From: Rhizodiscina lignyota
Lineage: Eukaryota
NCBI GenBank assembly: GCA_010015805.1
Contig: ML978129.1
Span: 682,001-746,000, forward strand
Direction: 5' to 3'
DNA length: 64,000 nt
How positions within the stretch are numbered: position 1 is the stretch's first letter; each line of letters opens with the position of its first letter. The translations under genes and the position numbers were made by a program. Positions 8,132 through 41,517 of this stretch are shown here, one piece after another. The notes beneath the pieces were generated by a model that had not been told where the DNA came from, ran no database searches, and saw nothing but the letters and a program-made list of their open reading frames with translations.

Positions 8132-9831
8132 AGCGGTGGTATTATTTCAACGACCAATGCGTTGGGTAGATTTGAAAGACAATGACAACAGACGAAAGGA
8201 TTGGAGGATTGGAGGATTGGGGTGTTCTTTTGTAGCTGGAGGGTTTGGAAGAAGTAGCCACGTTCGCATAAAAAGTCAGGAAGGTACCGCCCGCGGGCTT
8301 TAGTTATAATGTCCAGACGGTGGTAGCCTGACTAAGACCGACTTGGCTTAGCCTTTCCAGTCACGTGCGTACTAACGCACAGGGAAGTCCTTAGAGACTC
8401 CGCTAAGATACATGTAAGAGAAGGGAAAGCTGACATAAACATTTAAGGTTTCTGACCATATGGACATTATAACTATTAACTAGAGCCCCACCCGCGCACA
8501 GGCTACAGAAGCCTCTCGCATAGCTCTCACCATAATTTCCGCGGCAGCTGCTTCAAAATGACACGTTTCGATTCTCCTTCGCTACAATCCATTCCGTCAC
8601 CACGCTACCCTCCTGCTCGATACAGCCAAGTCCCTTCTTGCTTGTTCCTCATCCCGCCGCAATTCACTTCCAAGGTTGCGGAGTCCGTCCAGCCTCCTCC
8701 GATGTCCAGGAGCCCAGACGACATGGGAGGCTCACTTCACATGTCGAAGCCCTTCAATCCCCCTCAACTTGGAGATAAACCGTGGTAGCTCCTCTCCTGT
8801 TGGGTCTTCTGATCTTTGCAATGAAAAAATGTCTTTCAACACCGTATCCAACTAAGCTACTTTACCAGTCTGTCTCATGTATGGCGTATTCCAAATTCTC
8901 AGGAAAGAGAGACCAAAAATTTCGGTATTTCATAACATATGCCGACGAAAATACCCCCCTTTGTTGTCTCTAGCACACCTACAATTCGTATACTTCAAGG
9001 TTTATTTCGTCGAGAAGCATAGCATACTCATGTTCCCTATCTCCGTCCCACTAAAAGCTCAAACTTGTCTGATAGTATTTCTGATGGTGGAAGTCCAAAG
9101 CAATATCTCGTCCAGAGCTGCGCGAGATCATCCCAACTTCTAAGCCGAGTACAGCCTGCGCTGCCCAGACCATGTAAGATACCTGTATAGTATTGGAAGA
9201 CGCCAGCAGCAGCACCAATTCATGATATTGAATCTTTGATTGACATATGTCGCTACTGATATTCCGCCGTCTGTTGGAGTTACTTGCATTGGGCGATCGA
9301 GGTCTGTCTTTCATTTACGCTATAAGAAATGGGTTAAGATGCGAGTCGACGGGAGTACTGCCGCAGCAAAAAGCATCTCAGAGGAGCACTTGCTTAAGCT
9401 GCTATGTAGTGTGGAGGAAGAGACGGGGTGTGCTGAAGCTGTTAAACAACACTGCCTGCGAGGTATGCGTTCATCTTTCTGGAACCATCCTTTACCGACA
9501 CGGAACTTACCCTCGAGGCTTTGCATGGAAGCTTGTGTTACTAGGTAGCCGCCGGCAGATTTCACGTTTACCCTCACCTCATGACGTGAACATAACACGA
9601 AGTTACCGCTAGGGCGCTGTTCGCAACACGATTTCAAACACCTCGGGGCCCGAGCTCCGCGAATACATAATCTCGCGAACTTTTGCAAGCTTTCAAACCT
9701 TTCTTCCTTCTCCATGCTCCTGGCACATTCAGACACAGACACAAGCACCCACAGAGTACCCCCTTTCCAAGACACCACTCTCACAGCCAACTCCAGCTAG
9801 CCGAGCATTTACGACCTCGCCTCCATCCACC

Positions 9832-12800
9832 ATGGAGGACCTTGTCGTTATCGCTCTGGCTTGTCTTCCTATTCCAGTGATCATCATACTCTTCGCTATC
9901 TTTGCCCCCTATGTGGCTAAGATGATGTTCTTCATCGCCAATCACGCTCAAGATGTTGAAGATATCGGGCACAAGTCGAATAAGCTCATTGAGCGCCTCT
10001 ACAACTACGCTATCGGTCGACCCAACGATATTCAGGCCTCCCTTCCCCGCAATGGCTATCAGCACATCGCGCTGATCTTCAGCAGCGTGGTGTTAGCGTT
10101 GGTCTTCGTGTTTCGGCAGTCTTGGTGTTTAGCTACGAAGCTACACCAATCTCTTAGCACTCCTTATACGAATGTCCACAAGACTAGTGAGGAGGTTGCG
10201 CCTATCCCTTGTGCAAATAATTGTATGGCGACAGCTATTCCGTTCGGCAAGTGTCTTAATCAAGGTTTCAGAAACGGTTTTCTAATCTCACAATAGCTAT
10301 TCGAATCCGTAATGGCTCTGAGCTCTTGGTGAACATCATCACTACAAAGGGCACAATCATCATCATCCCCTTAGTGCCAGTATTCCTCTACGAGCCGATT
10401 GCTCCGCATGTGTATCATGAAGTTCAAGGTAAGGCAGCTATTGCGCATTGATAATACTATATGATGCTAACGAACTCAAAACAGTTGTGCTGATGGCAGC
10501 CATCGAGCTTCGATGTCGTCCATCCAAGCCTCTAGCCCCTTCCAAGGCTGTCATACTTCAGGAGGAGGATATCATTTCTGAGCACTTTGAACACGATGAC
10601 CACCCGCTTCCTGGTACTCACAAGAATGATGACGGCGTTCACCATATTGTCGACATGAAGGCCGTCTCCGATGCTGAGTCTCGTACTCCTACCCTCGATG
10701 AAACTCGCAGCACTAGCTCAGATGAAGTTCGCTCTCGCTCTAGTTCAGCGAGCTCGTCAACCTCTACTGATGAATCGAAGTCCTCTAGATATAGCACGCC
10801 GACAACTCCTACCTCACCGAAATCTGTGCCGCTCGAGAATGTTGACCCTGCTGTGGAAGTCGAAGGTGATGATGGCTGGACCTGGGCGAAGGACGAGTCC
10901 GAGAACAAGTTTCTTTGTGAGATTTTGCAGGAGATGGTCTCGCAGGGATGCTTCTCACATCCTCATGCCGTTCGTCAATCACCGGATGTTGCGCTGCCGA
11001 AAGATGATACCCCATTGGATGTCGACATTGAGATCGATGATGAATTACCAACCTCTTTCTCCGACGACGATGACTATACTTCGCCGCTGCCTGCACATGC
11101 CTCCGATTCGCACCACTGGACCTATGTCCTCCCCTTGGAGGTTAAGTCTACCGAGAACACAACATCCGCTACATCTGACGCTACACCAAGCTCGAATGCA
11201 GACTTTGATGTTCCATCAGCGGTTACGATCCCGTTTCCACTCCGTGTGCCAACATCTTCACCACAGGAGACCTCACCCAACACTTTGTCGCCTCTACCTC
11301 TAGAGGAAGGAATTCCAGTGGTAGAAAACAACTTCATCAGCGATGACAATATCAACAAGAGTGTTCTTCTCGCTGACTTTGCGTCCGATCACTCTTCTGC
11401 CGAGCCTACTGAGGCTGCGCCTTTTCCCCAGCCGGTCGATGTCGAGGTTTCTCTGGAAGAGGTCATTGAGGCATATCGCAAAGAGCGCTATAATGCAATA
11501 TACTCAGAGTTGCGGAAGAAGAAGCTTGCTGAGAAGAAGGCTAAAAAGCTTGGCAGCAAGAAGAAGCAGCACAAGAAGAAGCATGCTCGCGAGGTGGATG
11601 TTGAATTGGAGCAGGGCGAGATCAGAACAATTTCTAGGGAAGCTGAAGATGCGGCTGAGAAATTGGTTCGCGAGAAATTCACTGGTGAGCTTGGCGGCTC
11701 GGATGTCGATGAGCAGGTCGATGAGCAGGTCAACGAGCAGATCAACGAGCAGGCGATCGAGCAGACCGACGAGCAGGCCGATATGCTGACTGATGAGCAA
11801 TGCGAAGGGACATTGTCGGACTTCACGCCTCCTGCGGCCCTTATGGAGGAGGACGAAATTGTCTCGGAGTTTGACGACGACATTTATGACGAGGATCTCG
11901 ATGAGTCCGCTTTCCAGGAATTCGACGAAATCTCTGATATCCCTACTCGGGCCGGCATCATTGACGATGCGATCGCTCAAAACTACTTCTCCACTCCAAC
12001 TGTCACAGATGCTGTTTACGATACGGTCGCGGACAATGAAGGAGGTGCTGGTGTGAACGAGAACGTTGGTACCTCATCCGATACCCCGTGCGATGTTGCA
12101 GCAGAAGTATCCTTCGACGACACTACTAGCATTGGCTCTCACAAAGACGAGGCTTCTGGTTCCCCTTGCAATGCTTTGGTGATTTACCAGGACATCGACG
12201 AGATGATTAAAATTGCCTTAGCGAAGTCCCAAGTTCCCATGTCGATAATGGACGACTCAGATGATGAACCAGACTTTATGTACGATTATACTGACATAAA
12301 GGATTGTCCTCTCGGAAAAGGATGTCCACACGAAGACGACTATCCTCACATAAACGGCTGTCCACACGAAGACAAATGTCCTCACGGAGACGATTGTCCT
12401 CACGTAGATGACTATCCTCACAAGATCTGCTTCAAGGCAGCTCAGCGCTATAATCCGAACCACGTTAAGCTCCTCCTTGAGGAGGCGCTTAGCGGGAAAT
12501 CCGTGCTTGGTATGCATTATGTATGGAGAATAGTGCGTTACCTCTCCCTGGATCCAACCATGAACGAGCAAGGCAAAGCACGAGAGGCGAACTTTACGAA
12601 CCTTGTTGATCTCGAAGATGAGGACAACTTGGACCAAGAAGATCTCAGCGAGGAGGATTTGATAGCGGCTGAAAACACAGAGAAAGAGTATCAGGAAATC
12701 TTTGAAGCCCTTCGGAAGTCGATGGTGACCGATGTCACTGATGCAAACAAGCCAGGATTCGATGAGGTCACCGCGATGAGGTACTTTGACGGTCTCGTAT

Positions 12801-26910: not shown

Positions 26911-28968
26911 TCACAATTTCGCCTTTGCCTGAGTCTCCCCTAAACACCCTGCTTCCTTCAGTTTGTGCCACACTTCCAAACCATTCTCCCACATCTCCTT
27001 GTCCTTCCAAATATCCGTCTCGCCGCTCGGTTTAATTCTCCTCACCTCCTGAGGCCCATGTGTCCCCCACTTCGTCCTGATATCCTTTCCGTGCACAAAA
27101 TCACAAAATGCGTCATGCATCCATGTCTTCACCAAGCCTTTCTCTTTCTCTGTGAGCCCTTCCCCCCTTCCTTCACCCCACAACCAGAGAACTATATCAG
27201 TACCATGAGTCACTCCCCACTCTCGTGGCCAACTGGTATCGGCGCATTGCGCCCGCCATTCGACGCGATATCGATGCACAAGATCCCCAGCGCCGAACTT
27301 GTCAAGGCAGTCAACGAACCCACGTTCCATGTTATGGATCTGCGTATCTGCATAGATCCTGCCGAACGCGTCGTTCCAGTCCTTGCAACCCTTCGGGAGT
27401 TTTCCGTCAGGAGAGTAATGCTGCATGATCACCCGCACGACCGACAGTGGGTAGTCACCCTGAAGGCGATCGAAAGTCTTTCTGTACGACTGTGTACGCG
27501 CGTCGGGAGTCCTCCATGATTCGTACACGAAGTGCTCGTCCCGGCACTCGCCAGTGATTATCTCGACACCACGGTCACGCATGCGCTGCGCGAAGTCACC
27601 GGAGCAGATGCTGGTGAAGAGATGCGATGAAATGAAGGCGTTATCGGTGACCGCGCGGAATTCGTGCAACGCCATACTGTTGTTTGCGTCGACTAGTGCT
27701 TTCATTGGTAGGGCGCGGAGACGAGCCATTTTTTCCGTAGCGGTGAGAGAAAGTGGAATAGAGAGTTTTGTGAGCAGCTCGTTGAACTGCTCTTGCCGCT
27801 CGATCAGAGTATGTGGCTGCACGCCGGGGCCATTCGACCACATCACCGCACGGCGGATGATGGACTTATCAGTTGGCAGATAGAGATCATACTGCAATTG
27901 CTGGAATGTGGAGTGTGATCCTGAGGACTGTGTCAGTTTTGATCCTTCCCACAGCAGCTGGTACCAAAGGACATCTCCTTACCCGCAGAATACCCAGCTA
28001 CAGTGATGTTTCCTGCATTTCCGCCAAAGTAGCTGATGTTCTTGTACGTCCATTCAAGCGCGAGCCGCTGGTCCCAGAAACCGACGTTGAAGTCAGGTGC
28101 GTTTGGAGACTCGGCGAGCAATTCTTCGCTGGCGAGGAAGCCGAACAGATTGAGACGGTATGCTGGCTTTACAATGATGGCTCCGAAATTAGTCTCACTG
28201 AGGAGAGCGGAAAGGTCGCCGCCATTAGCTGTGCCGAATTGGAGAAATCCTCCATCTGTGCAAGACTTGAGTTCACGAGATATGGAAAGGAGGCGGATAT
28301 GGCTTACGGATGTAAATGAATACGGGCCAGCCTTCATATACACGTCAGTAAGTGGTCCCGAAAATCAACAGGAAAAGAGCATCCGACTCGCTTGGGAAGA
28401 ACAATTCTTGCGTTGACTACTAGGGAATTGCCGAAGCATCAAGGCCTTCAATCCAAAAGATTTTGAAGTTTTCGGAAAGAAAGAACAAATGAGGACTTTG
28501 GTAAAGAAGATCATCTATTATCAAGGCTGTAATGCCTCAATTGAACAGCGACAAGAATGAAAGCATCGGATTTAAGCAAGATTTCGGCATACCTCCCTTT
28601 GGTGGCTGCCCACCTGGAATCCATATGTTTACCTGTAAACAATCCTCTTCCCATACATTCTCTTCCACCGTAGGCTGTGGACAAACTCCAGTTCCCCCGT
28701 TGAACCTTCCAGGATTAGAATGCGTGCCATATCTGTAGCACGATGGCAATGCTCTGGGTTTCTTGAATCTATACGGCCCAACTGGCGGAAGGGCGTACGG
28801 TATCCCGCCAAAGTAATGACACAAGACTCGAGGCCGGAGATTTTTGGGGTAAGGATAGTTGTCAGATGGAGTGGTTGGGGTTTGAGAGATGTAAGAAAGG
28901 CCTTCGATGACACCGAGGGCTGAGAGATCCAGAACATAAGGCACCTTCTTCGGCTCCGATGCTGCCAT
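26911..28968 (-). CDS. Type-B carboxylesterase (para-nitrobenzyl esterase-like), 4 exons
   Basis: FGGIPYALPP, EDCLQVNIWIP, HGGFLQFG, YRLNLFGFL, nucleophile GYSAG, catalytic His in GVTHGTD. The exons join in phase. Confidence 0.93.
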
Positions 28969-29415
28969 TGTGACCAGTGTAACTCCTTCGCGATTTTGGT
29001 GTTATATCTGAGATGAATTGAGCTGTTAGAAGGGACAGATTGTGCTGCAATTCATTTACATTTACACCATTTCCGCCTGTTACTTAATGGAATCCTAAGA
29101 CATAGATATCGGCACAATTGCCGAACCAAAATGGCCCGCAGCAGACCCCAGACAAGTCACAGCGCCACCTATCGATAGGGGGCTCATGCACCTAAAAGCA
29201 GAGGTGTTGGGGTGCTGGAAGGTACGAGCGGCTGCCGTTCGGCAATTGCCGGCAGCGCGGAAATGGTTCAAATCCGATCTGAAATTCATTGGAAGGTCTC
29301 TCTCTCCGTCTTTGCCTTCACCCATGCTAAATATTCCCCTGATTTGCGCAGACGATCCTTCTTCAATCAAATCTCTTTTGCAATCAATTCAGGTCGATCT
29401 ATATTTGCCATGTAT

Positions 29416-31680
29416 TCACCAATCGTCATCATCCTCATCCTCATTCGAACTTGACGCCGCCTTCTGTCCCTGGCCTGGAACGTCTAGAAGCAAGGAGTTA
29501 TTCTCACGCTCTAAGGCTTCAAGATTCAGTCCGAATTTTCCTCCGTCGACGTGATCCGGTACACGCAATGATAGATGCGCCAAATCCTTGACTGGGCAGT
29601 CCGACATGCAATCAGTCACGAGGAGTTTGATGATCGCATTTGGAGTTTCATCGATCATCTTGATGATCCTTTCCACGACCCTATTTCCTTCGTCAAGGTT
29701 TCCAGATATCCTCGAAAACGAATCCAACAAAATGAAGACTCCGTCGTTTTCAGGCAACATTCCGAGTAGCCGCTTGAAAAGGGCTAGAGCATATTTTATC
29801 TTTTCCTGGGACTTTTGGGAGTACTCGGCTTCTTTAAGAAACGAGAGATCGATGGTCGGTCTTTGATCGGTGAGAAACCTGAGCAGTTGGCCGTTCATGC
29901 TCTTTAACATCGCAATCGGCCCGGATTCGTCCTCTTCTCTCGAAGAATTTGCTCGTAGTCCGCAAAAGAAGGAGAGAACCGGCAACTCAGTATTGTTACT
30001 GAGCATCTTGACGAGTAAGCCCGTGGTGAACGATAAGGAGTTGATCAATTTATCTGGCGGAGACTCGGCTTCGACCTCGAGGACGCAAGAGCTACTTCGA
30101 GTGAACCACTCGTACAACTCACCAGAATTCATAATCCATCGGATTTTGTCTTTCTCTTCGAGGTCAAGAGTCTCAACAGCATTGGAGCATTCTCCGAGGT
30201 CCTTGGACACCTCTGGATCGAATGGAGCCAGGCCATCAATCCATTCATCAATGATGCGTCTGTTGGTGTCAACTGAGAAGAGCGCGCCGCCGCTCGGAGC
30301 AATGGCGCTTCGGTTCGAGGTCAAGATGTACTTCAAACGGTCCTGGATCACTGTCATTCCTTTGTTAGCTTCGGAAGTTGCAAGGGATAAGCTAAGCTCG
30401 CTTCACCTGTCCCGTCAATAGGATTGAAAGTTGGATCACTCGCGACGAGCCGATAGAATTCATTCCAAACTGCAGCTTGGGCTCGCTCAAAAATCGTTTG
30501 TTGCTCGCCATTAAGAAATTTCCGCTGGTTTTCTTCGATTCTTGCAATTGCCGATCTCATCTGAGTCATCTCTGCAGAATATCTCAGTCTGTCTTGTTGT
30601 GGATTCTGGACACGAATGCTCGCTTACCTGTTATTCCAGCTCTCATCTCATGTCTTATCTGCATACCGTTCTCTTCGATTCTACCCATCCTGACCTGGGC
30701 ACAGATCTCCACTTCCTCTTTGAACTCAGCAATGCTGCGATTTAACGAACCGAGCGCGTCCTTGATATCGCCACTCCGACCCTTCACTTTTGAGAGCATA
30801 CTCTCTATGTTCTTTTCAGTCATGTGTAGTGCTTTGTAGGGATCCCAATACTAACCTCCGAAATTCATAGACAAACTATCAATGATTCGCTCAAGCGCGA
30901 TGAATATGCATATAAAGACGGAATTCGCATGCACATGAAGGCCTTTTGACTTTACGTGAACCTCGGTCAGTCTTTGTACGGTGCTCAGCCTTCGCGGTAT
31001 CTCGGCCAGGCTCGCCTGCATATCGTTTCGGAGCTTTTCATGATCACATATCACCTAGTATAAGACTGTTAACTCAAAGTCTTTCGACGATAGGCAAGCA
31101 GCATACAGCAAGGACCACCGTAAAGCCACCTGCAATGATCGAGCCATAAATATCATTCGGGACGCAGCTTAGGATATTTTCCAGCGTGCTTCTGTGTTTC
31201 GCAGTGGCCTTGAAACAATTGCGAATGACACGCATGCAGGTACGTGTGTTCTCTGAGTTCTTGTTTCTGTCCTGAACCAATTTGGCAATTTCAAGAACAT
31301 CTGCCATTTTGTAGTCCGCGGGATCTTTGATGTGAATGCCCAGTCTTTGGTCGAGCTTCCTTCTCTGGATCGTTTACAAAACCTTTGAAGAGTGTCTTTG
31401 AATTCTTTCATCTTCTCGGCTGACTCGACATAGTAGTCCTCCTCGCTGCCTACTATGAGTATACATCGGAAGTGAGAGATGTGGAACTTTACCGATGAAC
31501 CTCTCCTGGTGGGACAAAGCCATCGAGGCCACTCACGAATTCTGGCGATCTAGTGCCGTGATACCTACGAACAGTTGCAGCTTGAGATGTGAGTGCTGGT
31601 CCGGCTCTGGTCTCAACGAATTCAGCGGCGCTGTTGGTCATGACCCTGGATCTGGAGACGAGAGGCTGATCTTCTGCCAT
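29416..31680 (-). CDS. NACHT/STAND-like (NPHP3_N-type) protein with degenerate Walker A and no C-terminal sensor repeats; one frameshift as assembled
   Basis: Multi-exon model. N-terminal helical region (ILSCVPNDIYGSIIAGGFTVVLA) followed by WIMNSGELYEWF..SCVLEV, VLSFFCG, MLKSMNGQLL, Walker-B-like VFILLDS and IKLLVT. A frameshift at ~31373-31375 is repaired by one base to FCKTIQRRKLDQRLG. Confidence 0.7.
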
Positions 31681-32625
31681 ATCAATCGAAGCTCGCCACA
31701 ATTCTTGAAGTTATATCTTTTTTTGGAAATCACACTTGCGATAAGGGAGACAGCCTTGTCACGATATTGTTATTTGAATCTAAAACTTCTGTCACAGACT
31801 ATATCTGTTGCATAGCTGCCTTGAAAAGATGCCACGCTATGTCAGCAGGTGATTTTCATCTCGGCTCTGAGCACAGCCTGCGAGGCTGAAGGAATGATTT
31901 TCGTCCGAGTTTTAGCGGATTGTGGAAACGAGCAGGTGAATAATAAAACATGGCGATGACAGCCTTGAGCGGCAGCGACCTTCTAATTCTGCAACGCTGA
32001 AGAGGCATAACACGACTGCGATATGGGGCCTCTGGTGACGCCTTTTCGTTCGCACCGAGATGCTTCATCGCGAGTTCAATACGCCCTGCATGGCCAAGGA
32101 TTTGTCTGGTATCGCCATCCTGCCCACCGGTGCCGTAGACTGGGTAGCGATTGGCTCTATTGTGCAGGAGCTGAGGAGCTGCGGGGGAGAAAACGAATAC
32201 TTCACTTTGCACGGGAGAGTACCACACCATATCGTCCATCTCAGGAACTGTATTGGTGGCCTCGACGGCTCTCTTACTATCCCTACAATAGTGTGCATGT
32301 GCTGGAGAACCCGGAACGAGTGCTGGCGCGTCCTTTCTCAGGGAGATTTGAAGCCCTATGTGAGTTCGCATAGGGAAATCCATAATTAATGTCATAAGCT
32401 CAACCAAATTTATCCGCTCATCATTTCCGCCGCAGAGCCTCATCTGTTATTAATTCGTATTCCCATCCGGGTTCTTTCCTTTTCGCTCGAAGAGGTTGCT
32501 CGTTCATCGTTTGACTTCCTGGTTTGCGTTATTTCTGTCGCAATTCCTTGGTTCTATTGAAATCTCTTGATTCTCTATTCTTCTAGACATATCCGGTACA
32601 TGCGCAAGTTTCCTTGAAGTGGGCA

Positions 32626-35600
32626 ATGGCAGACCCGTCATACACAAAATCGGCTGCTGAAGTCAGCTACAGCAGCCTTCCTGCAACGCCTTTACGAGAC
32701 GGAGAAGTTTCAGCTAACGCCCCTACCTCAGGTAAAGATTCCGATACGGTCGCAACGAAAATGAGTACTACAGAAGACAATGCTCAATTGCAGAGTACAA
32801 ACCGGGCACTGCCCTCTGAAGCGCCTGGCGAGCCTGCAAAGAGCGAGGACTCACTAAAGGAACACGGTGACTCGATCGAATCTAGCATAGATGGCGACAA
32901 TCCAAAGAAGGCTGACAACGAAAATGGGGCGAAGGCTCCGACTGTTCACCTACGCCATTCAAGAGATACGGGGATTGACTCGGACTCCGGGACCGATGAT
33001 GAAGAAACTATGCACGCCGCAAGTGAACTGACATCGTCCAGCCTGTACGAGGCCTATGTCGAAAAGCTGGAACGTGAAAACGGCCCTGACCCCAACCACG
33101 ATAAGGAAATGGCTCCAAAACTTGTGAAGGGTTTCATTGACTACGTCCGCACACTTGAGAGGCGTGTTACCATTCTAGAATCTGGGATGGGCAAGGGCCT
33201 TCCAACAGGACCTCCCGCACCGCCCACGGTTAAACAAAAAGAAGTTGTACCGGAGGTCAAATTTTTCAATGCCGCCAATGAAGTTGATCCAGATGGGGAT
33301 TTTATACCTCGCAAAGCGACGGAAGAAGACACGTATTCAAGTGCAACAGCGGACAGGTGCCTCATTCGAGTCCTTTATAATTGGAACACAGACGAATACG
33401 ATATTGGAAGAGTTCTGTCGTTGGATGGGAAACAACAACCGGAGCCGGAGGATATCGATATCGTAGCAATTGGTATCGAATCAGTGCATATCTGGTCCTT
33501 TTTCTCGGGACATGGAGGGCCTTGGAACCTCTAGAAATTTTTTATTGCGATTATCAAAGCCATTTCGCGCCCTACTTCCATATGTCCAGTCAATGAAGGA
33601 TCATCTCTCCATGCTTGAGAGAGAATTTAGGTCGGTCGCCTGTGTAAAGCTGTCAGTCACGGTGAACATGAGCTAACCTAGTAGCAGATCACTCGTCGTA
33701 AATGACTCTCAAGACGATCATGAAGAAACCAAATATGTATCTAAGGAGAAGTCCGAAGGTGAAGCGACTTCAAGTACGCGGCCTCCCGAGCTGGTGTCAC
33801 CTGAGCAGGCTCTTAAGCACTTTCGTATTGTGGTTCAGTTTATCGATAAGTACCTGAGCAAACATCAGGCTGTCTTTGAAAAACTGAGGACTGGCAGAGA
33901 GGACAAAGTTACGTTTGAGGATCTCTGGATGCTATTCAACTCTGGTGATACCATTTATTCCCCTTTCCAAGAAGGGGGCCATACTTTGGAAGACAATGGG
34001 GACACACATACAACGAATAGGAGAGATGTTCCACAAGCATACCGCGTTCTGACAGCACAAGGTGGAATTCCTTTGACGAAAACTATTGCTCCGAGAACGA
34101 AAAGGCAAAATCTGTCCCTGCAGGTGGATCCCCTAGGGAAAAGGAACGACATAAATACCTCCTTAAGGATGAAGGACAAATACAGCACGTTTTATGTCTA
34201 CTGCTTCTACATAGACTTCGATGGTGGTAATTACGGAACAGTGCCCGAGATCTTTGAGTTTAAGCCGTACGAAGGTGAAGTCGACATTCGATCACTCGAC
34301 GCGTATCCGTTGCATCATTCCTACCGCACGGACACAACAATCACAGACGCGGAGCTCGGAATTCAATTACAGGATATGCTTGTAGATCGAGGTAAAAAGT
34401 TCATTGATCTTACAGCAGTTTCTCACATGACGTATGAAGGCCTCACTGTCGGAGAGCGGCGGGAAGAGGTATCGAACCAGTGCGACGACTTCCATATGGC
34501 AGACGCTAATGACGTGACAGATAAACAGCGCAGTCATCGTGGATATCAAATTGGCGTTCCAGCAGTATAAAGGCTCATTTCGAAATCCTGACGCTGTCGT
34601 CCCAACATTCTCAGCGCTGAACGGTTCATTATTGTTGACACCTCTGACTATTGGCCAAACAGTTGAACTGCACGGTGGTATATGCCGATGTGGCAGTAGC
34701 AACGAATGGTGTCACAATTTCCAATGCACCTTCGATCAATATCCAAACCTGCAGAAGGTAAAAAGACAGAAGGCCGTGACGGTCATCCGGGCGCTACTCG
34801 AAGAATGCGAGAACGAAAAGTCGAATCAAAGAGACGGACTCAACAACATCAAAAACTTCATGGAAGAAAGGGACCTAATTCGACTACTACCAGGCGTTGT
34901 CCCGGGATTTGCATTGAGAAACCGGAAATGGAGTAAGGCCACGAATTCCGAACAGAACTGACGCATGTCGCTCACCACAAACACAGTTCAACTCGATATC
35001 AACTTTTTGGAACACGTAAAGCAAGAGAACAATTGGGACGATCTCGTACTTCCAAAGGGACATAGGAACATGGTCCAGGGGATGGTTGAGACCCACGCTC
35101 AGGGCTCGAGATCGACCACGGGCCGTCAGCAAGATAAGATAGAAATGGATCTTGTTCGTGGAAAGGGAAGGGGTTGCATCATGCTACTCCACGGGGCACC
35201 TGGAGTTGGCAAGACATCAACTGCGGGTATGATAAACGTTCGCTTCTCATGCACGGATATGTTCAGCTCACTGACGTCTACTCTCAGAATGTGTGGCAGC
35301 GTACACAAAGAGGCCGTTGTATCCGATTACTTGTGGTAGGTTTCAATTTCAGAGATACCTCTGGAACAGAATTTCTCACAGGAGCAGGCGACATTGGCTA
35401 CGTGCCAGATGAGGTCGAAAAAAACATGGAACAACATTTCGAACTGGCTCACAAGTGGGGATGTGTACTACTACTTGACGAAGCGGATGTGTTCCTGGCG
35501 AAGCGTAACAAGGAAGACGTCAAGCGTAACGGGCTTGTCTCTGTGTTTTTGAGGATCCTGGAGTATTACTCTGGCATCCTGTTCCTCACAACGAATCGTG

Positions 35601-36274
35601 TAGGCATGATCGATGACGCGTTTCGCTCAAGGCTCCATCTCACACTGTACTACCCGCCACTCGGCCGCAGTCAAACGAAGAAAATCTGGCGTACCAATTT
35701 CAAGCGTCTCGAAGTCATCAATGCCGAGCGTGAGAAGTACGACCGTCCTCGCATAGAGTTCGACGACAAGCGAATCATTCGATGGGCTGATAAGTACTTC
35801 GAAGAGCTGAAATGGAACGGGCGGCAGATTCGCAATGCGTTCCAGACAGCTGTGGCGCTCGCGGAGTTCGCCGTGAAGAAGTCTGAGCGGAATGAGGAAT
35901 CTTCAGCAACAAAGTCGCTGGTCATGAGCGTCAAGGACTTCAGGACGATCGCGGAGGCGTCGATACAGTTTAATGAGTACTTGCTGGAAACGCATGGCCT
36001 TGATGAGGATCGGACAGCGAAGAGGGATTTGATTCGCGCGAATCGGGAGTTCAAATCGAAGGTCAAGATAGATCTCGATGAGAGCGAAGAGGAAGATGCC
36101 TCTGACGAAGATGAAGAATCGAGCGACGACGCGGATCATGATTCAGGTGATGACTCCGATGATGAGTCTGAGGAATCTGAGAAAGACAAGAAAAAGACGA
36201 AGAAGGGGAAAAAGAAGGCAAAGATGGATTCTGCCAACAAACCAAAGTCGAAGAAAAAGAAGAAGGATAAATAA
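32626..36274 (+). CDS. Fungal accessory AAA+ ATPase (DUF7025-like N-terminal region + AAA core), multi-exon; one frameshift as assembled
   Basis: VTFEDLWMLF, CFYIDFDG, WDDLVLP, GKGRGCIMLLHGAPGVGKTSTAECVA (Walker A), VLLLDEADVFL (Walker B), FLTTNRVG..DDAFRSR, WNGRQIRNAFQTA, and an acidic then Lys-rich tail. Frame break at ~33499-33503. Confidence 0.9.
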
Positions 36275-36774
36275 GTTAACTGCAGAGTCACATATAGTTT
36301 CCAGATGCCCTCGAAGGTGACACAAATATTTGCCGCAGCTTTCAGCACATTAAGCATCTGCTCTGTATAAGCTCTATTAGCAATGAAGCGTAAAGTCTTT
36401 CAACAGCAAGTTATTGTACGATCCACTCCAAAGAACGTACTACTAAGCTTCCAAGAATAATCTCGCTTGCCTTGAAGTATGAGAGCTACTTACCTTTAAG
36501 CGGTACAACCTTACTAAGCTCTCATTCTAAGTTAGCAGAAGTGTTGCTTTCTCCTCATTGCCTGGCTTGAGCCTTCATTCGCCATAGATGAAGCGTATTA
36601 ACTTAATTTAACATAGATATCTAAGCTCCAACATCTCCTTAACACACAATACTAATAGACTTTGAATTCATCTTAACTCCGTTATGCTATGCTTCATGAC
36701 AACCCATCACCACAATGTGCCTACCCATCCCCATCCCCACTCCCCAAACACTCTACTTATCCATATGTAACCAC

Positions 36775-37570
36775 TCATTGCCCTGGTGGCTTAGAACCAG
36801 GGGGTCCACCCATGCCTGGCGGCGCACCCATACCTGGTGGCGGAAACGGAAAATTTGGCGGCATTCCTCCAGGTGGCGGGAAGGGCATAGCGTTAGGCGG
36901 GGATCCCGAATGCGGCGGGAAGGCCTGCGGGAATGGCATCTGTCCTGGTGGCATGTTTGGTGGGAACGGTGGCATTGGAGGCATGTTCGGAGGCATATTT
37001 GGAGGCATTCCTCGACCTCCTGGCGGCATCGGGAACGGTGGTGGCCCGCCGGGGGGGAAGCCGAACGGCGGAGGAGGGAAGCCTGGGCCAGCGCCCGGCA
37101 TTGGTGGGCCACCCATGAGGTGGTTGTGTTGGAGCATCGGGTTCGAGTCTGACTGGCCGGCGGCGGCGTACGAGGAAGTGATTGAGTCGATTACAGATTG
37201 AGCTTTCTCGTGGCCGATTTCTGGACCAATATTGTTAGCAATTGCTTCCAGAGACAAGCCAAGTGAAGCACAGCGTTTGTGTGTTGAGAATAACCAGAGT
37301 GAATGGAGGGTGTGTCCTGAAGGCAAAGCTCCAGCATTCGGAGACGTACGCTGATAGTAGTCGACGACATTGCGCAGGTGATTTCGGCCGCTATTGTGAG
37401 CCTTGCGCACGCTCATCGAGTCGTGAGTGAGGTAGACATCGCAGTAGTCACCTATGGAATTAGCTGCTTTGCATTGAATGAAGCTGCTCGCGTGAACCTA
37501 CAAAAGAGTGCACAGATGGTAAGCTTGCGGTTTCATTTAGCAGTGTGAATGGATACTTATATTTTGGCAT
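36775..37570 (-). CDS. YHC1: U1 snRNP protein C, 3 exons
   Basis: [28 protein letters not shown] zinc finger, [17 protein letters not shown], and a Pro/Gly/Met-rich tail. Confidence 0.96.
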
Positions 37571-38389: not shown

Positions 38390-38994
38390 AAAGATGATTA
38401 TTAGAGTCGGCCTCGTTAGGATCCTATCGATGTTATAGGATCGTGTATCACTGTACCAGCATCGACATTTGGCTCATTTAGATGGACTTGATCATGGTAC
38501 ATGTCGTGGGACCGTGTTTGCATTGATTGCGTATATCATTTCAAGCGTCTAGAGCATTTCGACATGGAGTCACGGGTGGAATTGCATAGCGAGATACCCA
38601 TCTGCAGAGTTAAACATGCAATTGAATTCCAATTTGATATATGTAAGATCCATAGGACGTCCTATCACTGATGAACCGGACAAACACACCAGCCATTCCC
38701 GTGTTGCGTTTCTAATGGGCTTTGCGTCATTTGGCCCCAGCGCCATGTGCCCTGCATGGATCCTTTTTCGCAAACGCGACCTCCGACTGCATCCTTGTCA
38801 ACCTTCAAGTATCGTCCTCTCAGTTATCTGGGGAAACCAGCGCAACGAATTGGATTGGGAGCGCTCATATCCATATTCTACATCACTGACACATTGATGC
38901 TCCTCCACCCCAGACGCGCTCTTTGGACGCGTTGCGCGTGAAGCGCTTAACCTCACCACCGAGCTTCTCACGAACAGCACATCTTTTCAACGCA

Positions 38995-41517
38995 ATGGCG
39001 ACACCAACGCCCTCAGGCACACACGGCTCCAAGCACCCTCTGACCGCGCACTCAACCGCGACGCCTCCCTCCGTCTCGCACCTCCCAAACTTCTCCTCCC
39101 CAGCGCCGCGCTCCGTCCCCTCGCCCGCAACACATCGCAACCAAGCTGGCAAATCGCCCTTCAACACCTCCAGCCATGCGCCAAACAGTGTCGGCAGCAC
39201 TGCAACAGCCGGCGCACAGAACCACCCGACTGGCAGCTCGGGCAAGGGCTCGCAGGGCGTCGCAGGAGGTCTGCTTGGAAGCTCACCGGCAGGCATGAAC
39301 ATCGATTCACCTGCGGCGCTAGCCATGGGCCTGGGACAGATGGGCGGTGTGGAGATGGGACTGGGAATGAGCATGAGTGGGATCAGCCAGATGGGATTTG
39401 GAAACCTGGGTATGGGAATGGAGATTGGAGGCAGCAGAGGGGTGCAAGGCCGCGCGATGGACGACGAGGAGAGGAGAAAGAGACTGGAGCAGGTTATTGC
39501 GATGGTAGGCAGTAGACCGGGACGTGTGAGTGAAGAGTCGTTGGAGAGATTGGGGAGACGGCTTGGTTTAGATACTCAATGCGACCCACCACTTGGGCAG
39601 GGCAAGGGCGCGAATTGGAATGGGGTGAGGCAGTTGGCGATCGCCGGACAGACGTTCGTGGTCGATATCAGCTCACGGAGCGATAGCGTGGAGAACGTTT
39701 CGATTACGTGGGGAGCGGATCCGACGAAAGTCGATGAGTCGGCAAGTAAGTTGCTGATGGAAAGCATCACGCCTCCTCCAGGTGGTTCGAGCATCACATA
39801 TACGCTCGATAAATTCGAGAAAAATCTAGAACGTTTGGCGCGCCTGGATAAGCTGGAAGGAGCATCGTTCAATTGCTACGAGGCGATAACTGGGGTTTAC
39901 GAGAGCCTGAAGAGACTATATGAGCATGAGAAGAAGACTGCCTTAGCACTCATCGGCGAAGGTGCAAACAGGAGGGAAGAGCGCGCCGAGAGAGAGACAA
40001 TGTGCAAGAAGAGTGGCATACCACGGCTGAATGCCCACGGAAGAATTGGAGTATCGCTTGAATATTGGATGGATGGCCGCTTCCAGTTCAAATCGCCGTC
40101 CACAGACCAGGGTAATACCATGGACGTAGACAAACCTAGTTCATCGTCAGAACATGAAGATGATGGGGATGGGCAAGTCTACTCGCTTGTCATCGATTGC
40201 GAGTCTCATCCCGCCACACTCTACACTCCTATACGTACGTCTACAGCATGGATCTCCGAGGCTGTAGAGAAGCTCTCCGACGACCCTCACGGCCTTTTCG
40301 GACAGCAGGCCGAAATTGACTGGCAGGAGCCACCGTCATCGTATCTAAATAATCCGCACGAAGATGCTCCGCAGCAGCCAGATCCAATGAACCTCCAAGA
40401 CCTAGGTATGGGGAAACTGCCGAACATCAGATTCGTGGCCAGATTGGACCCGCCACTGCCTATGCCAGTGCAGATGTGGAACAGCATCTTGCATGCAGTA
40501 GGCGTGCAGCCGGATCTCCAGAGTCTGCGACATCATTCCTATGACGGGTTGGTGCTCAGAGCGGAAAGCTTGGAAGAACTGGCTGAAGCGCGCGATATTG
40601 CATCTCAGATGGAACGACAGGTTTACAGCAAGCGCGACATACTAGTTCCGGCGACGAATAGCAAAGAAGAATTCGAACGAATCCATTCAAGCACTCTAAT
40701 CGCTAAAGCCGAGTTTGGCAAAGTGCTCGAGGAGATCCCCTTCAGCCATCCTAGGGACATTGTCAACATTCTTGGTGTGTTGCGACAATACGCGTTCCTC
40801 AACTCCCTGTTGAAGCGGTCATTCGCAGCATCTAATCCGTCACTCACTCACGGCATGACCAACGGCACCAGCAATGGCGATCTCAACGGCGATACGGACA
40901 AGAAGCTTCCATCCCTCCCTGTGGACGTCCTCCTCACCACCGCGACCGCAACGTCCACATCTCCGCAACTCGTCATCACATTCCCTCGACCGATCCCACC
41001 TGCACCAACTCCAGCACCACGCTCACCAGTCCCGTCTGAGTCAAAAACTCTTCCTAGCAATACAAAACGCCTCGTGCCATACAGCTCTAGTACAGCGGCT
41101 TCTGACGCAGACGGAGATATCACACTCGACGACATCCTCGACGCTGAGGGTGCATCTGCCGATCCTTCGTTCGGGGCCAAAGACGTGGAAGCGGAAGCGA
41201 CAGTGCTAAGTCTCACAATCGAAATTTCAGCGCATAATGCCGATGTGAGCATCGTGGAGCAGAATGCCGTGCCGCCACCCACATCCGCTGTTACCACTAA
41301 TGAGAAAAGTTCCGGCTCCGATGGAGCAGAGAAGCAGGAAGGAACAGAAACAGGAGTGAAACAAGAAGGCGAGGATGTCATGGAAGGTATTTCGAAAGAC
41401 ATGGCGAACCAGCAGGAGGAGACGAAGAGGCTGGAGAAGGTACAGCGGTTCGCAAAGGCGTTAGAAGTATGTGGGGATATCGACGTGTGGGTGGAGTGGA
41501 TCGCGAAGCAATCGTAG
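38995..41517 (+). CDS. MED1: Mediator of RNA polymerase II transcription subunit 1
   Basis: MATPTP start, DEERRKRLEQVI..GRVSEESLERL, NLERLARLDKL..FNCYEAI, IPFSHP..LRQY, C-terminal ALEVCGDIDVWVEW; typical fungal Med1 layout. Confidence 0.88.
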   Translation: MATPTPSGTHGSKHPLTAHSTATPPSVSHLPNFSSPAPRSVPSPATHRNQAGKSPFNTSSHAPNSVGSTATAGAQNHPTGSSGKGSQGVAGGLLGSSPAGMNIDSPAALAMGLGQMGGVEMGLGMSMSGISQMGFGNLGMGMEIGGSRGVQGRAMDDEERRKRLEQVIAMVGSRPGRVSEESLERLGRRLGLDTQCDPPLGQGKGANWNGVRQLAIAGQTFVVDISSRSDSVENVSITWGADPTKVDESASKLLMESITPPPGGSSITYTLDKFEKNLERLARLDKLEGASFNCYEAITGVYESLKRLYEHEKKTALALIGEGANRREERAERETMCKKSGIPRLNAHGRIGVSLEYWMDGRFQFKSPSTDQGNTMDVDKPSSSSEHEDDGDGQVYSLVIDCESHPATLYTPIRTSTAWISEAVEKLSDDPHGLFGQQAEIDWQEPPSSYLNNPHEDAPQQPDPMNLQDLGMGKLPNIRFVARLDPPLPMPVQMWNSILHAVGVQPDLQSLRHHSYDGLVLRAESLEELAEARDIASQMERQVYSKRDILVPATNSKEEFERIHSSTLIAKAEFGKVLEEIPFSHPRDIVNILGVLRQYAFLNSLLKRSFAASNPSLTHGMTNGTSNGDLNGDTDKKLPSLPVDVLLTTATATSTSPQLVITFPRPIPPAPTPAPRSPVPSESKTLPSNTKRLVPYSSSTAASDADGDITLDDILDAEGASADPSFGAKDVEAEATVLSLTIEISAHNADVSIVEQNAVPPPTSAVTTNEKSSGSDGAEKQEGTETGVKQEGEDVMEGISKDMANQQEETKRLEKVQRFAKALEVCGDIDVWVEWIAKQS

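Follow-up and report, generated by a model that had tools for sequence, protein, structure and literature searches.

A head-to-head pair of a P-loop-less NLR-derived gene and a DUF7025-AAA+ ATPase gene conserved among filamentous ascomycetes

Analysis of a 64,000-nucleotide stretch of the Rhizodiscina lignyota genome (contig ML978129.1, positions 682,001 to 746,000; hereafter the window, which is the whole stretch analyzed) led to two divergently transcribed genes. The left gene encodes a protein derived from the NOD-like receptors (NLRs) that lacks the nucleotide-binding Walker A loop (P-loop), and the right gene encodes an AAA+ ATPase with a DUF7025 region. Comparison with other fungal genomes and metagenome contigs supports the view that the two genes form a conserved head-to-head unit and are not chance neighbors, and it is very likely that this conserved pair is also functionally linked. 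The product of the right gene is 98% identical to an NCBI protein of R. lignyota and the window is fungal. An initial annotation, made from the letters of the window alone, had proposed an "undescribed two-gene system" at this place. That proposal stands as far as a conserved pair with no description in the searched literature is concerned, while the copies in the window itself proved to be frame-disrupted.

Concerning novelty, searches of the freely readable literature, supplementary tables aside, found nothing on DUF7025, DUF7708, PF22942, PF23232 or PF24809, and nothing on a fungal AAA ATPase gene linked to an NLR-like gene (searched with Pezizomycotina and heterokaryon incompatibility). 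For PF24883 the only match was an NLR survey preprint. The conserved pairing of a pseudo-NLR with a DUF7025-AAA protein is new here and, judged from the sequences, suggests a shared job for the two proteins.

Conservation of the gene pair

The initial annotation had placed the divergent start codons at 31680 (−) and 32626 (+) with 945 bp between them, and both coordinates were found correct when re-read (Table 1). Short introns (GT..AG), absent from that annotation, are present in both genes. They were placed by tblastn with full-length homologs (P0018 and P0024 for the left gene, P0011 and P0003 for the right one), and exon borders were also taken from the exact mapping of the annotated products P0016 (558 aa) and P0001 (741 aa). 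The left gene has five introns, plus a predicted sixth at 31492-31446, and the right gene has five. The pair is flanked in the window by a carboxylesterase gene, a U1-C-type zinc-finger gene and Med1.

When metagenome contigs were searched with an alignment of 8 left-family sequences, four loci (L001-L004) came up. A divergent DUF7025-AAA gene lies directly upstream of the left gene in all three loci with enough flank (L001, L002 and L003), while L004 (1.5 kb) is too short for any neighbor. In L001 the AAA gene runs from 7880 to 4623 and the left gene from 9620 to 11939; in L003 the respective positions are 8568 to 5223 and 9576 to 11871. L002 shows this arrangement too, up to the point where its contig ends. 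As L002 and L003 are 99.5% identical at the DNA level, they were counted as one, leaving two independent metagenome lineages. When 35 kb of the window and these loci were compared in translation, similarity was confined to the two genes (29410-31695 and 33103-36049), the flanks giving no convincing match, and L001 and L003 share only the two genes with each other.

Named species were taken where both a left-family and an AAA homolog were among the matches listed (n = 5). The accessions of the two genes are consecutive in Rhexocercosporidium sp. (KAH7309947, KAH7309948), Glarea lozoyensis (EPE35642, GLAREA_11342; EPE35643) and Lasiosphaeria hispida (KAK3349666, KAK3349667), and two apart in Acephala macrosclerotiorum (KAF8861392, KAF8861394). 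In each of these four species the two genes are on contigs of equal length, taken to be one and the same contig. Consecutive accessions were taken as neighboring genes because numbering in record order usually gives that. By accession order, therefore, the two genes are presumably next to each other or two apart in four of the five named species. Together with the divergent neighbors in the two metagenome lineages, this bears out the expectation that homologs would be preferentially adjacent.

The two genes also seem to have diverged in parallel. Pairwise identity matrices of the left domain and of the DUF7025 region correlate over seven pairs (r = 0.77), a value reached in about 1 in 200 label permutations, in agreement with the congruent histories that had been anticipated for them. 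For either gene, L001 and Acephala have the copies nearest to those of the window. The window pair has an identity of 50-59% with the Acephala and L001 pairs, and the Glarea pair 40-44% with that of Acephala; overall, the pair persists at protein identities down to 30-40%. We take Acephala and Glarea to be Leotiomycetes and the window organism to be a Dothideomycete, thus of another class than Acephala. These identities, which come from 7 sequences with no rooted tree, suggest that the history common to both genes does not simply follow taxonomy; either transfer or the existence of several old lineages of paralogous pairs is indicated. Such a history fits a unit duplicated or moved whole; given 7 sequences and no rooted tree, transfer is not claimed.

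It is hardly credible that the two genes are chance neighbors drawn from two expanded fungal gene families. Both families are indeed large (440 representatives for the left one and many AAA matches) and in one species, Hypoxylon, the retrieved homologs are on different contigs, but adjacency recurs in the window, in two metagenome lineages and in four of five named species amid unrelated flanks, and the divergence patterns of the two genes correlate.

The NLR-derived protein and its missing P-loop

The left product contains VLSFFCGLR, LKSMNGQLL and GVFILLDS, and every motif that had been quoted as part of a NACHT-like scaffold was found in the sequence. Its Walker A position reads ...CVLEVEAESPPDKLINSLSF..., and in an alignment of 34 full-length members the pseudo-P-loop AESPPDKLINSLS takes the Walker A place. 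The whole left family reads E[ST]PPxxLxNxLSF at this position, and GxxxxGK[ST] occurs in 0 of 150 family representatives. The P-loop loss is therefore old and family-wide and no local defect, and the absence of GxxGxGK[ST] remarked for this one gene extends to its relatives. With this loop lost, a canonical Walker A mode of nucleotide binding is closed to the left family. The Walker-B-like strand ends in the invariant D457, which is not followed by a second acidic residue, the next residues being S-F/x-S.

In a search of 1.84 billion proteins, the last exon of the left gene (310 aa) matches 440 cluster representatives at E ≤ 1e-3, and 74 of these also pass E ≤ 1e-30. The named species with a member of the left family presumably span Dothideomycetes, Leotiomycetes, Sordariomycetes and Lecanoromycetes. 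Full-length members have about 650-720 aa and one common architecture in the alignment of 34: a LTNSAAEFVE.RAG motif is followed by a helical region with P.D.YGS.I.GGF..ILA, a long helix, a C-terminal alpha/beta domain and an acidic tail. No repeat family (WD40, ANK, TPR, LRR) was found by Pfam in the left product, as had been stated for WD40, ANK and TPR, nor in any of the 34 aligned members. The acidic tail reported as EDEDDDDW is the end of the product, NEDEDDDDW. A C-terminal Trp is found in 23 of 150 family representatives, in 12 of them after an acidic run.

R..LTNSAAEFVE.RAG is nearly invariant at the extreme N-terminus (window 31680-31600), while the region around it is variable. From its conservation, this segment looks like a docking or recognition peptide. 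The frame change that follows, at 31493/31445, was read as an intron of 47 nt, since the genes of L001 and L003 have an interruption there as well; the predicted intron rejoins the frame between ...PPGEVHR and EEDYYVES.... It occupies the same position in the window, L001 (9790-9850) and L003 (about 9795-9850), and the L001 copy is in frame and stop-free.

The alignment of 34 members was used for an AlphaFold model, in which residues 270-530 reached a predicted local distance difference test (pLDDT) value above 90. At the pseudo-P-loop the model has a strand (336-342), then a loop, and then a helix (352-367). Exhaustive structure comparison aligned residues about 295-521 of the model with P-loop-type domains. 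The match to Cdc6/Orc1 had Z 12.4, with 161 residues aligned at a root-mean-square deviation of 2.9 Å, and further matches were to Avs3 (Z 11.1), a member of the signal transduction ATPases with numerous domains (STAND), and to ZAR1 (Z 10.7), Apaf-1 (Z 9.9), CED-4 (Z 9.8) and MalT (Z 9.7). Foldseek with the whole left model gave no match at E ≤ 1e-3, the best being ORC4 at 2.4e-3. On the strength of the model, the left domain can confidently be predicted to have a P-loop nucleoside triphosphatase fold of the ASCE (additional strand, conserved glutamate) type. The label "Walker-A-less NACHT/STAND-like" was thus a fitting one, with a P-loop-type fold by structure comparison and Walker A missing throughout the family. 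Lack of a P-loop fold had been named as a finding that would speak against the proposal, and the predicted fold is present (pLDDT > 90, Cdc6/Orc1 Z 12.4). The helical N-terminal half matched only generic helical bundles (BAR, GCP and Sla2; Z 9-10) and is not interpreted. In the model, the protein ends about 45 residues after the nucleotide-binding domain, in a disordered acidic tail and without the helical/winged-helix arm.

For the local product Pfam NPHP3_N gave E 5e-5, a likeness beyond chance, at 22.8-23.9 bits and so slightly below the cut-off of 24.8; among relatives, P0038 reaches 28.2 bits and others 23-24.5. DUF7708 matches the N-terminal region in nine of the ten family members scanned (E 4e-8 to 9e-3), with only P0018 (28.3) and P0028 (33.7) among the ten passing its cut-off of 25 bits. 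The truncated local model P0016 had no Pfam match to DUF7708. In a language-model search with the N-terminal 360 residues of a relative, the nearest Atlas clusters were DUF7708, Goodbye and NACHT_N (score 0.92). The left protein is outside NLR/STAND in the strict sense, since Walker A and repeats were tested for and are absent, yet it is clearly derived from them.

In the NACHT/NPHP3_N-type fold, the FFC..R and NGQLL motifs and probably also the kind of N-domain, the left family resembles the fungal Goodbye-like/DUF7708-NACHT-repeat NLRs (PMC4986451). Unlike these NLRs with their WD40, ANK or TPR repeats, it lacks Walker A, the second Walker B acid, the helical/winged-helix arm and any repeats. 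A recent NLR survey selects its set by an intact P-loop (PMC13449251), and the 2014 fungal NLR survey of Dyrka et al. reports only single-residue P-loop variants (PMC4986451). Published censuses thus require an intact or near-intact P-loop, and the left family would be missing from them (PMC13449251; PMC4986451).

The AAA+ ATPase and the state of the local copies

The right protein is ordered as an N-extension, DUF7025, AAA, AAA_lid_13 and an acidic/Lys-rich tail. Pfam gave E-values of 1.4e-22 for DUF7025, 8e-10 for AAA and 2.3e-22 for AAA_lid_13; for the annotated product P0001 the scores were 76.5 (cut-off 27), 72.5 (21.2) and 78.5 (27) bits, respectively. Walker A, Walker B, sensor-1 and Arg-finger motifs had all been described as intact, and GAPGVGKT, LLLDEAD, LTTNR and FRSRLH can be read in the sequence; LFLTTNR as sensor 1 and DDAFRSRLH as Arg fingers were assigned by manual sequence reading. 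The poly-Lys tail that had been mentioned corresponds to a Lys-rich C-terminal end. GDIGY is conserved in the partner subfamily, and its equivalence to the aromatic pore loop 1 is a manual guess; the ATPase core modelled poorly. Longer relatives (P0011, P0180) carry a conserved N-terminal extension before DUF7025.

The closest solved sequences to the ATPase domain are Rix7, p97/VCP, NVL and Msp1/ATAD1 (E 4e-11 to 2e-6), and because of these nearest sequences the right protein was placed in the classical AAA clade. It is a classical AAA protein and a member of the Pfam-defined fungal DUF7025/AAA_lid_13 group. Pfam describes this family only as "Fungal AAA+ ATPase lid" and a domain of unknown function, and it detects no STAND features in the AAA partner. 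The likeness to Rix7/NVL, p97/Cdc48 and Msp1/ATAD1 lies in the ATPase-domain sequence; the right protein differs in having one ATPase domain only. A 1181-aa relative from Glarea modelled poorly (mean pLDDT 57.7), and only the lid of this model matched known structures (Pex1/Pex6 Z 10.3, ATAD1 Z 9.0).

The annotated P0001 starts at 33735 and omits the N-terminal third of the right gene. Its first exon has 13 codons (33735-33773), and the intron that follows (within 33735-33868) removes the conserved ALKHFRIVVQFIDKYL segment. The P0001 model is therefore probably a modelling artefact.

Relative to its homologs, each of the two genes in the window carries one frameshift, at a homopolymer run in its 5' part, a feature absent from the initial annotation and new here. 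In the left gene, translation from ATG 31680 meets a stop after about 154 codons. Left homologs read ...TL..FCK-T(L/I)Q.RK(L)D.KLG... unbroken, and L001 is in one frame across this point. In the right gene, the break lies between ...IWSFFS (frame 1) and RDMEGLGTS... (frame 2), where L001 again has one frame, and translation begun at ATG 32626 runs into the TAG at 33532-33534. Introns as a rescue of both frameshifts were ruled out, as the homologous segments abut at equal length and there is no suitable GT..AG. A contig assembled independently from one public run (X1) is identical to the window over 29300-36400 with a word depth of 155; an assembler artefact is therefore excluded, and a culture-specific mutation is not. 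Beyond the breaks both frames are long and stop-free, with all family-invariant residues and the ATPase motifs, and they offer in-frame ATGs at 31307 (left) and 33512 (right). With the downstream frames intact, either the damage is recent or truncated proteins are still made from these two ATGs. Both public gene models, P0016 and P0001, start downstream of the breaks, P0016 at the internal ATG 31307, and any product begun there lacks LTNSAAEFVE.RAG, which is located upstream of the frameshift.

From their reading frames, the local copies are probably truncated or dead. Whether they are outright relics, with both genes functionless pseudogenes and the shorter annotated proteins products of modelling, is a question on which we see even odds. 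Each gene has one homopolymer frameshift, the annotated models begin past the breaks, the AAA model has its odd 13-codon first exon and omits ALKHFRIVVQFIDKYL, and the contig of the public run matches the window. The long, stop-free downstream frames that keep invariant residues and ATPase motifs argue for the contrary, as do the two in-frame ATGs, by which the breaks would be very recent or truncated products would still be made. A relic of this kind would be limited to the window copy and is thus compatible with a dedicated, working pair in the family. A fresh frameshift in each of two adjacent genes, next to intact-looking neighbors, is what would be expected if losing one partner ends selection on the other, and the double frameshift is in this respect a weak but real backing for functional linkage.

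Regarding the surroundings, the first codons of the U1 snRNP C-like gene (36775-37416) seem to be in an upstream exon. The intergenic region holds a 195-codon open reading frame (31856-32443, −) with no Pfam match and no similarity to L001 or L003, which is probably not a gene.

Table 1. Features of the gene pair and its neighbors in the window (positions counted from the first letter of the window).
Feature	Position	Strand	Basis or remark
Left gene	29416..31680	-	ATG 31680, stop 29416-29418
Left-gene exons	31680-31493, 31445-31107, 31054-30856, 30804-30628, 30571-30407, 30350-29416	-	tblastn + mapping
Predicted left-gene first intron, 47 nt (GTAAAG...CAG)	31446..31492	-	Frame change between tblastn segments
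Left-gene frameshift, AAA run after TGT	31373..31375	-	tblastn frame -1 to -3 at 31376/31373
Pseudo-P-loop AESPPDKLINSLS	30031..30069	-	Walker A place between strand 1 and helix 1, alignment of 34
Walker-B-like strand GVFILLDS	29722..29745	-	D457 invariant column; strand 450-457 in model
Acidic C-terminal tail NEDEDDDDW, Trp last	29419..29445	-	Sequence
Divergent intergenic region, presumed shared promoter	31681..32625	.	945 bp
Right gene	32626..36274	+	ATG 32626, stop 36272-36274
Right-gene exons	32626-33630 (frameshift inside), 33685-34468, 34521-34932, 34987-35226, 35288-35335, 35388-36274	+	tblastn + mapping
Right-gene frameshift, TTTTT run 33499-33503	33499..33506	+	tblastn frame +1 to +2 at 33504/33521
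Walker A GAPGVGKT	35193..35216	+	Sequence
Walker B VLLLDE (LLLDEAD)	35465..35482	+	Sequence
Lys-rich C-terminal tail, preceded by acidic Ser/Asp/Glu stretch	36184..36271	+	Similar tails in P0003, P0011
Carboxylesterase-family gene, several exons	26911-28968	-	Pfam COesterase E 1.5e-21 and 1.5e-10, two open reading frame pieces
U1 snRNP C-like gene	36775-37416	-	zf-U1 E 1.9e-6, then long Pro/Gly/Met-rich tail
Mediator subunit Med1	38923-41517	+	Pfam Med1 E 2e-96, single long open reading frame

Possible mechanism and related systems

In a normal NLR, nucleotide binding and exchange in the NACHT domain provide the off/on switch, the repeats sense and the N-terminal domain acts, while members of the classical AAA clade are ATPases that unfold, extract or disassemble proteins. 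Against this background, the pair is best explained as a conserved two-gene module of filamentous ascomycetes that is co-inherited. Its left protein is NLR-derived, keeping the DUF7708/Goodbye-like N-domain and the fold of the nucleotide-binding domain, while Walker A loop, second Walker B acid and sensor repeats are gone throughout the family. The AAA+ ATPase, with its large N-terminal region (DUF7025), is transcribed divergently from a common region of 0.5-1.3 kb and would serve as the dedicated, energy-using partner that binds and remodels the pseudo-NLR. It may hold or reset the pseudo-NLR in an inactive state, or switch it on; in either case, the switching that a normal NLR performs with its own NACHT domain would be provided in trans. 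Candidate handles for the ATPase are the invariant N-terminal motif, the acidic-Trp tail and the inert domain. By analogy with other Goodbye-like NLRs, regulated cell death or non-self defense would be the likeliest output. In the window genome both genes of the module are damaged, with N-terminally truncated proteins at best.

A dedicated ATPase that remodels a pseudo-NLR in a conserved module is the best explanation overall, and we put its probability at about 0.45. On the evidence of the sequences, a direct action of the ATPase on the pseudo-NLR falls just short of an even chance, and either direction of regulation gets less. For the full-length left protein of Glarea and residues 115-335 of the AAA partner, complex prediction reached a score of 0.05 (mark 0.34); the family alignments did not enter it, and the outcome speaks neither for nor against contact.

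AAA+ remodelers with a dedicated client or adaptor include TRIP13/Pch2 with HORMA proteins (also in bacterial cyclic oligonucleotide-based antiphage signaling systems, CBASS), NSF with SNAPs and Vps4 with ESCRT-III. The likeness, which is one of analogy, would lie in an ATPase of one ring, of the classical or a related AAA+ kind and with a recognition region at its N-terminus, and in a partner unable to change state alone; the left protein has no sequence or fold relation to HORMA, SNAP or ESCRT-III. In plants, NLRs paired head to head (RGA4/RGA5 and RRS1/RPS4, for instance) resemble our pair in divergent orientation, a short common intergenic region and one partner of reduced autonomy. Both partners of the plant pairs are NLRs with P-loops, whereas here one gene only is NLR-derived and it has no P-loop. 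Assemblies of the ORC/Cdc6 type mix active and inactive AAA+ subunits and gave the best structural matches of the left domain, which differs from them in having no DNA-binding winged helix. Among fungal systems, the het-S/nwd2, HELLP/PNT1 and gasdermin/protease clusters likewise keep a gene related to NLRs next to its partner as a functional unit (PMC12881547). Active sensing is the task of the NLR in these clusters and execution that of the partner, the two being linked by a shared amyloid motif or by proteolysis (PMC12881547). In contrast, the NLR-like member of the present pair is inert, the partner is an ATPase and no common motif is found. BLASTP detected no motif common to the Glarea partners, the best local similarity having an E-value of 1.2.

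The two genes could also be co-regulated neighbors without physical coupling, sharing a bidirectional promoter or chromatin and the same stress or defense program, with the ATPase having other substrates. Adjacency, divergent orientation and parallel divergence fit this equally well, and so does the lack of a sequence motif common to the partners (best BLASTP E 1.2). No word of at least 9 bases is common to the intergenic regions of the window, L001 and L003, however, so that no common regulatory element is visible. Moreover, the pair survives as all flanking genes change and down to 30-40% identity, which would be unusual for mere promoter sharing, and both genes are broken together in the window. 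Co-regulation on its own is thus, in our view, rather unlikely.

A more specific version of the preferred explanation, in which the ATPase remodels the pseudo-NLR, would be a toxin/antidote-like or allorecognition pair. The pseudo-NLR would be a latent killer and the ATPase its specific inhibitor, acting by disassembly or extraction, so that loss or mismatch kills. The movement of the pair as a unit into unrelated genomic contexts would suit this version, as would its joint inactivation in the window, which is expected if one partner cannot safely stay alone. Similarity that runs off taxonomy would suit it as well, the window copy being nearer to Acephala than Glarea is to Acephala; the classes are presumed ones, and the point rests on the identities of 7 sequences with no rooted tree, which tells against it. 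Two-gene death clusters are an established pattern in fungi (PMC12881547), but the 2014 survey enters Goodbye-like domains as being of unknown function (PMC4986451). This version is quite improbable at present. Unlikely, though less so, is the broader idea of a mobile immune or cell-death module. An NLR would here have ceded its nucleotide switch to a separate AAA+ unfoldase; what is left of the NLR, P-loop-less but with an executioner domain of the Goodbye-like kind and an oligomerization domain that is inert, would be held or fired by the dedicated ATPase, and the pair would be duplicated, transferred and lost only together, the two frameshifts of the window being a case of such joint loss.

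Several points weigh against the proposed dedicated remodeling of the pseudo-NLR. Adjacency in the named species rests on accession order, without coordinates or orientation. In Hypoxylon sp. FL0543 the AAA homolog KAI1142730 and the left homolog KAI1139708 are on different contigs, so that the pairing is not universal or the true partner was missed, only one AAA homolog being among the matches listed. The sample is small, its 7 pairs being set by the homologs among the matches listed, and the parallel divergence of the two genes would be equally expected from plain co-inheritance without interaction. To judge from the searches, the DUF7025-AAA family is large, so most of its members may have no such neighbor. 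The NPHP3_N scores of the local copy are borderline (22.8 vs 24.8 bits). As the public run may be the source of the assembly itself, the frameshifts are not independently confirmed. Finally, the cell-death reading is an analogy, given that the 2014 survey lists no known function for the Goodbye-like class (PMC4986451).

For the biology of these fungi, the pair draws attention to a P-loop-less NLR branch of 440 cluster representatives that is invisible to surveys requiring an intact P-loop. Its conserved one-to-one pairing gives both families a testable hypothesis, concerning the substrate of the ATPase on the one side and NLR-like switching without nucleotide on the other. Two genes and one promoter region make a compact genetic system for the study of regulated cell death in fungi. 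If it is true that the ATPase controls the pseudo-NLR, this would be a new wiring of a STAND-type switch.

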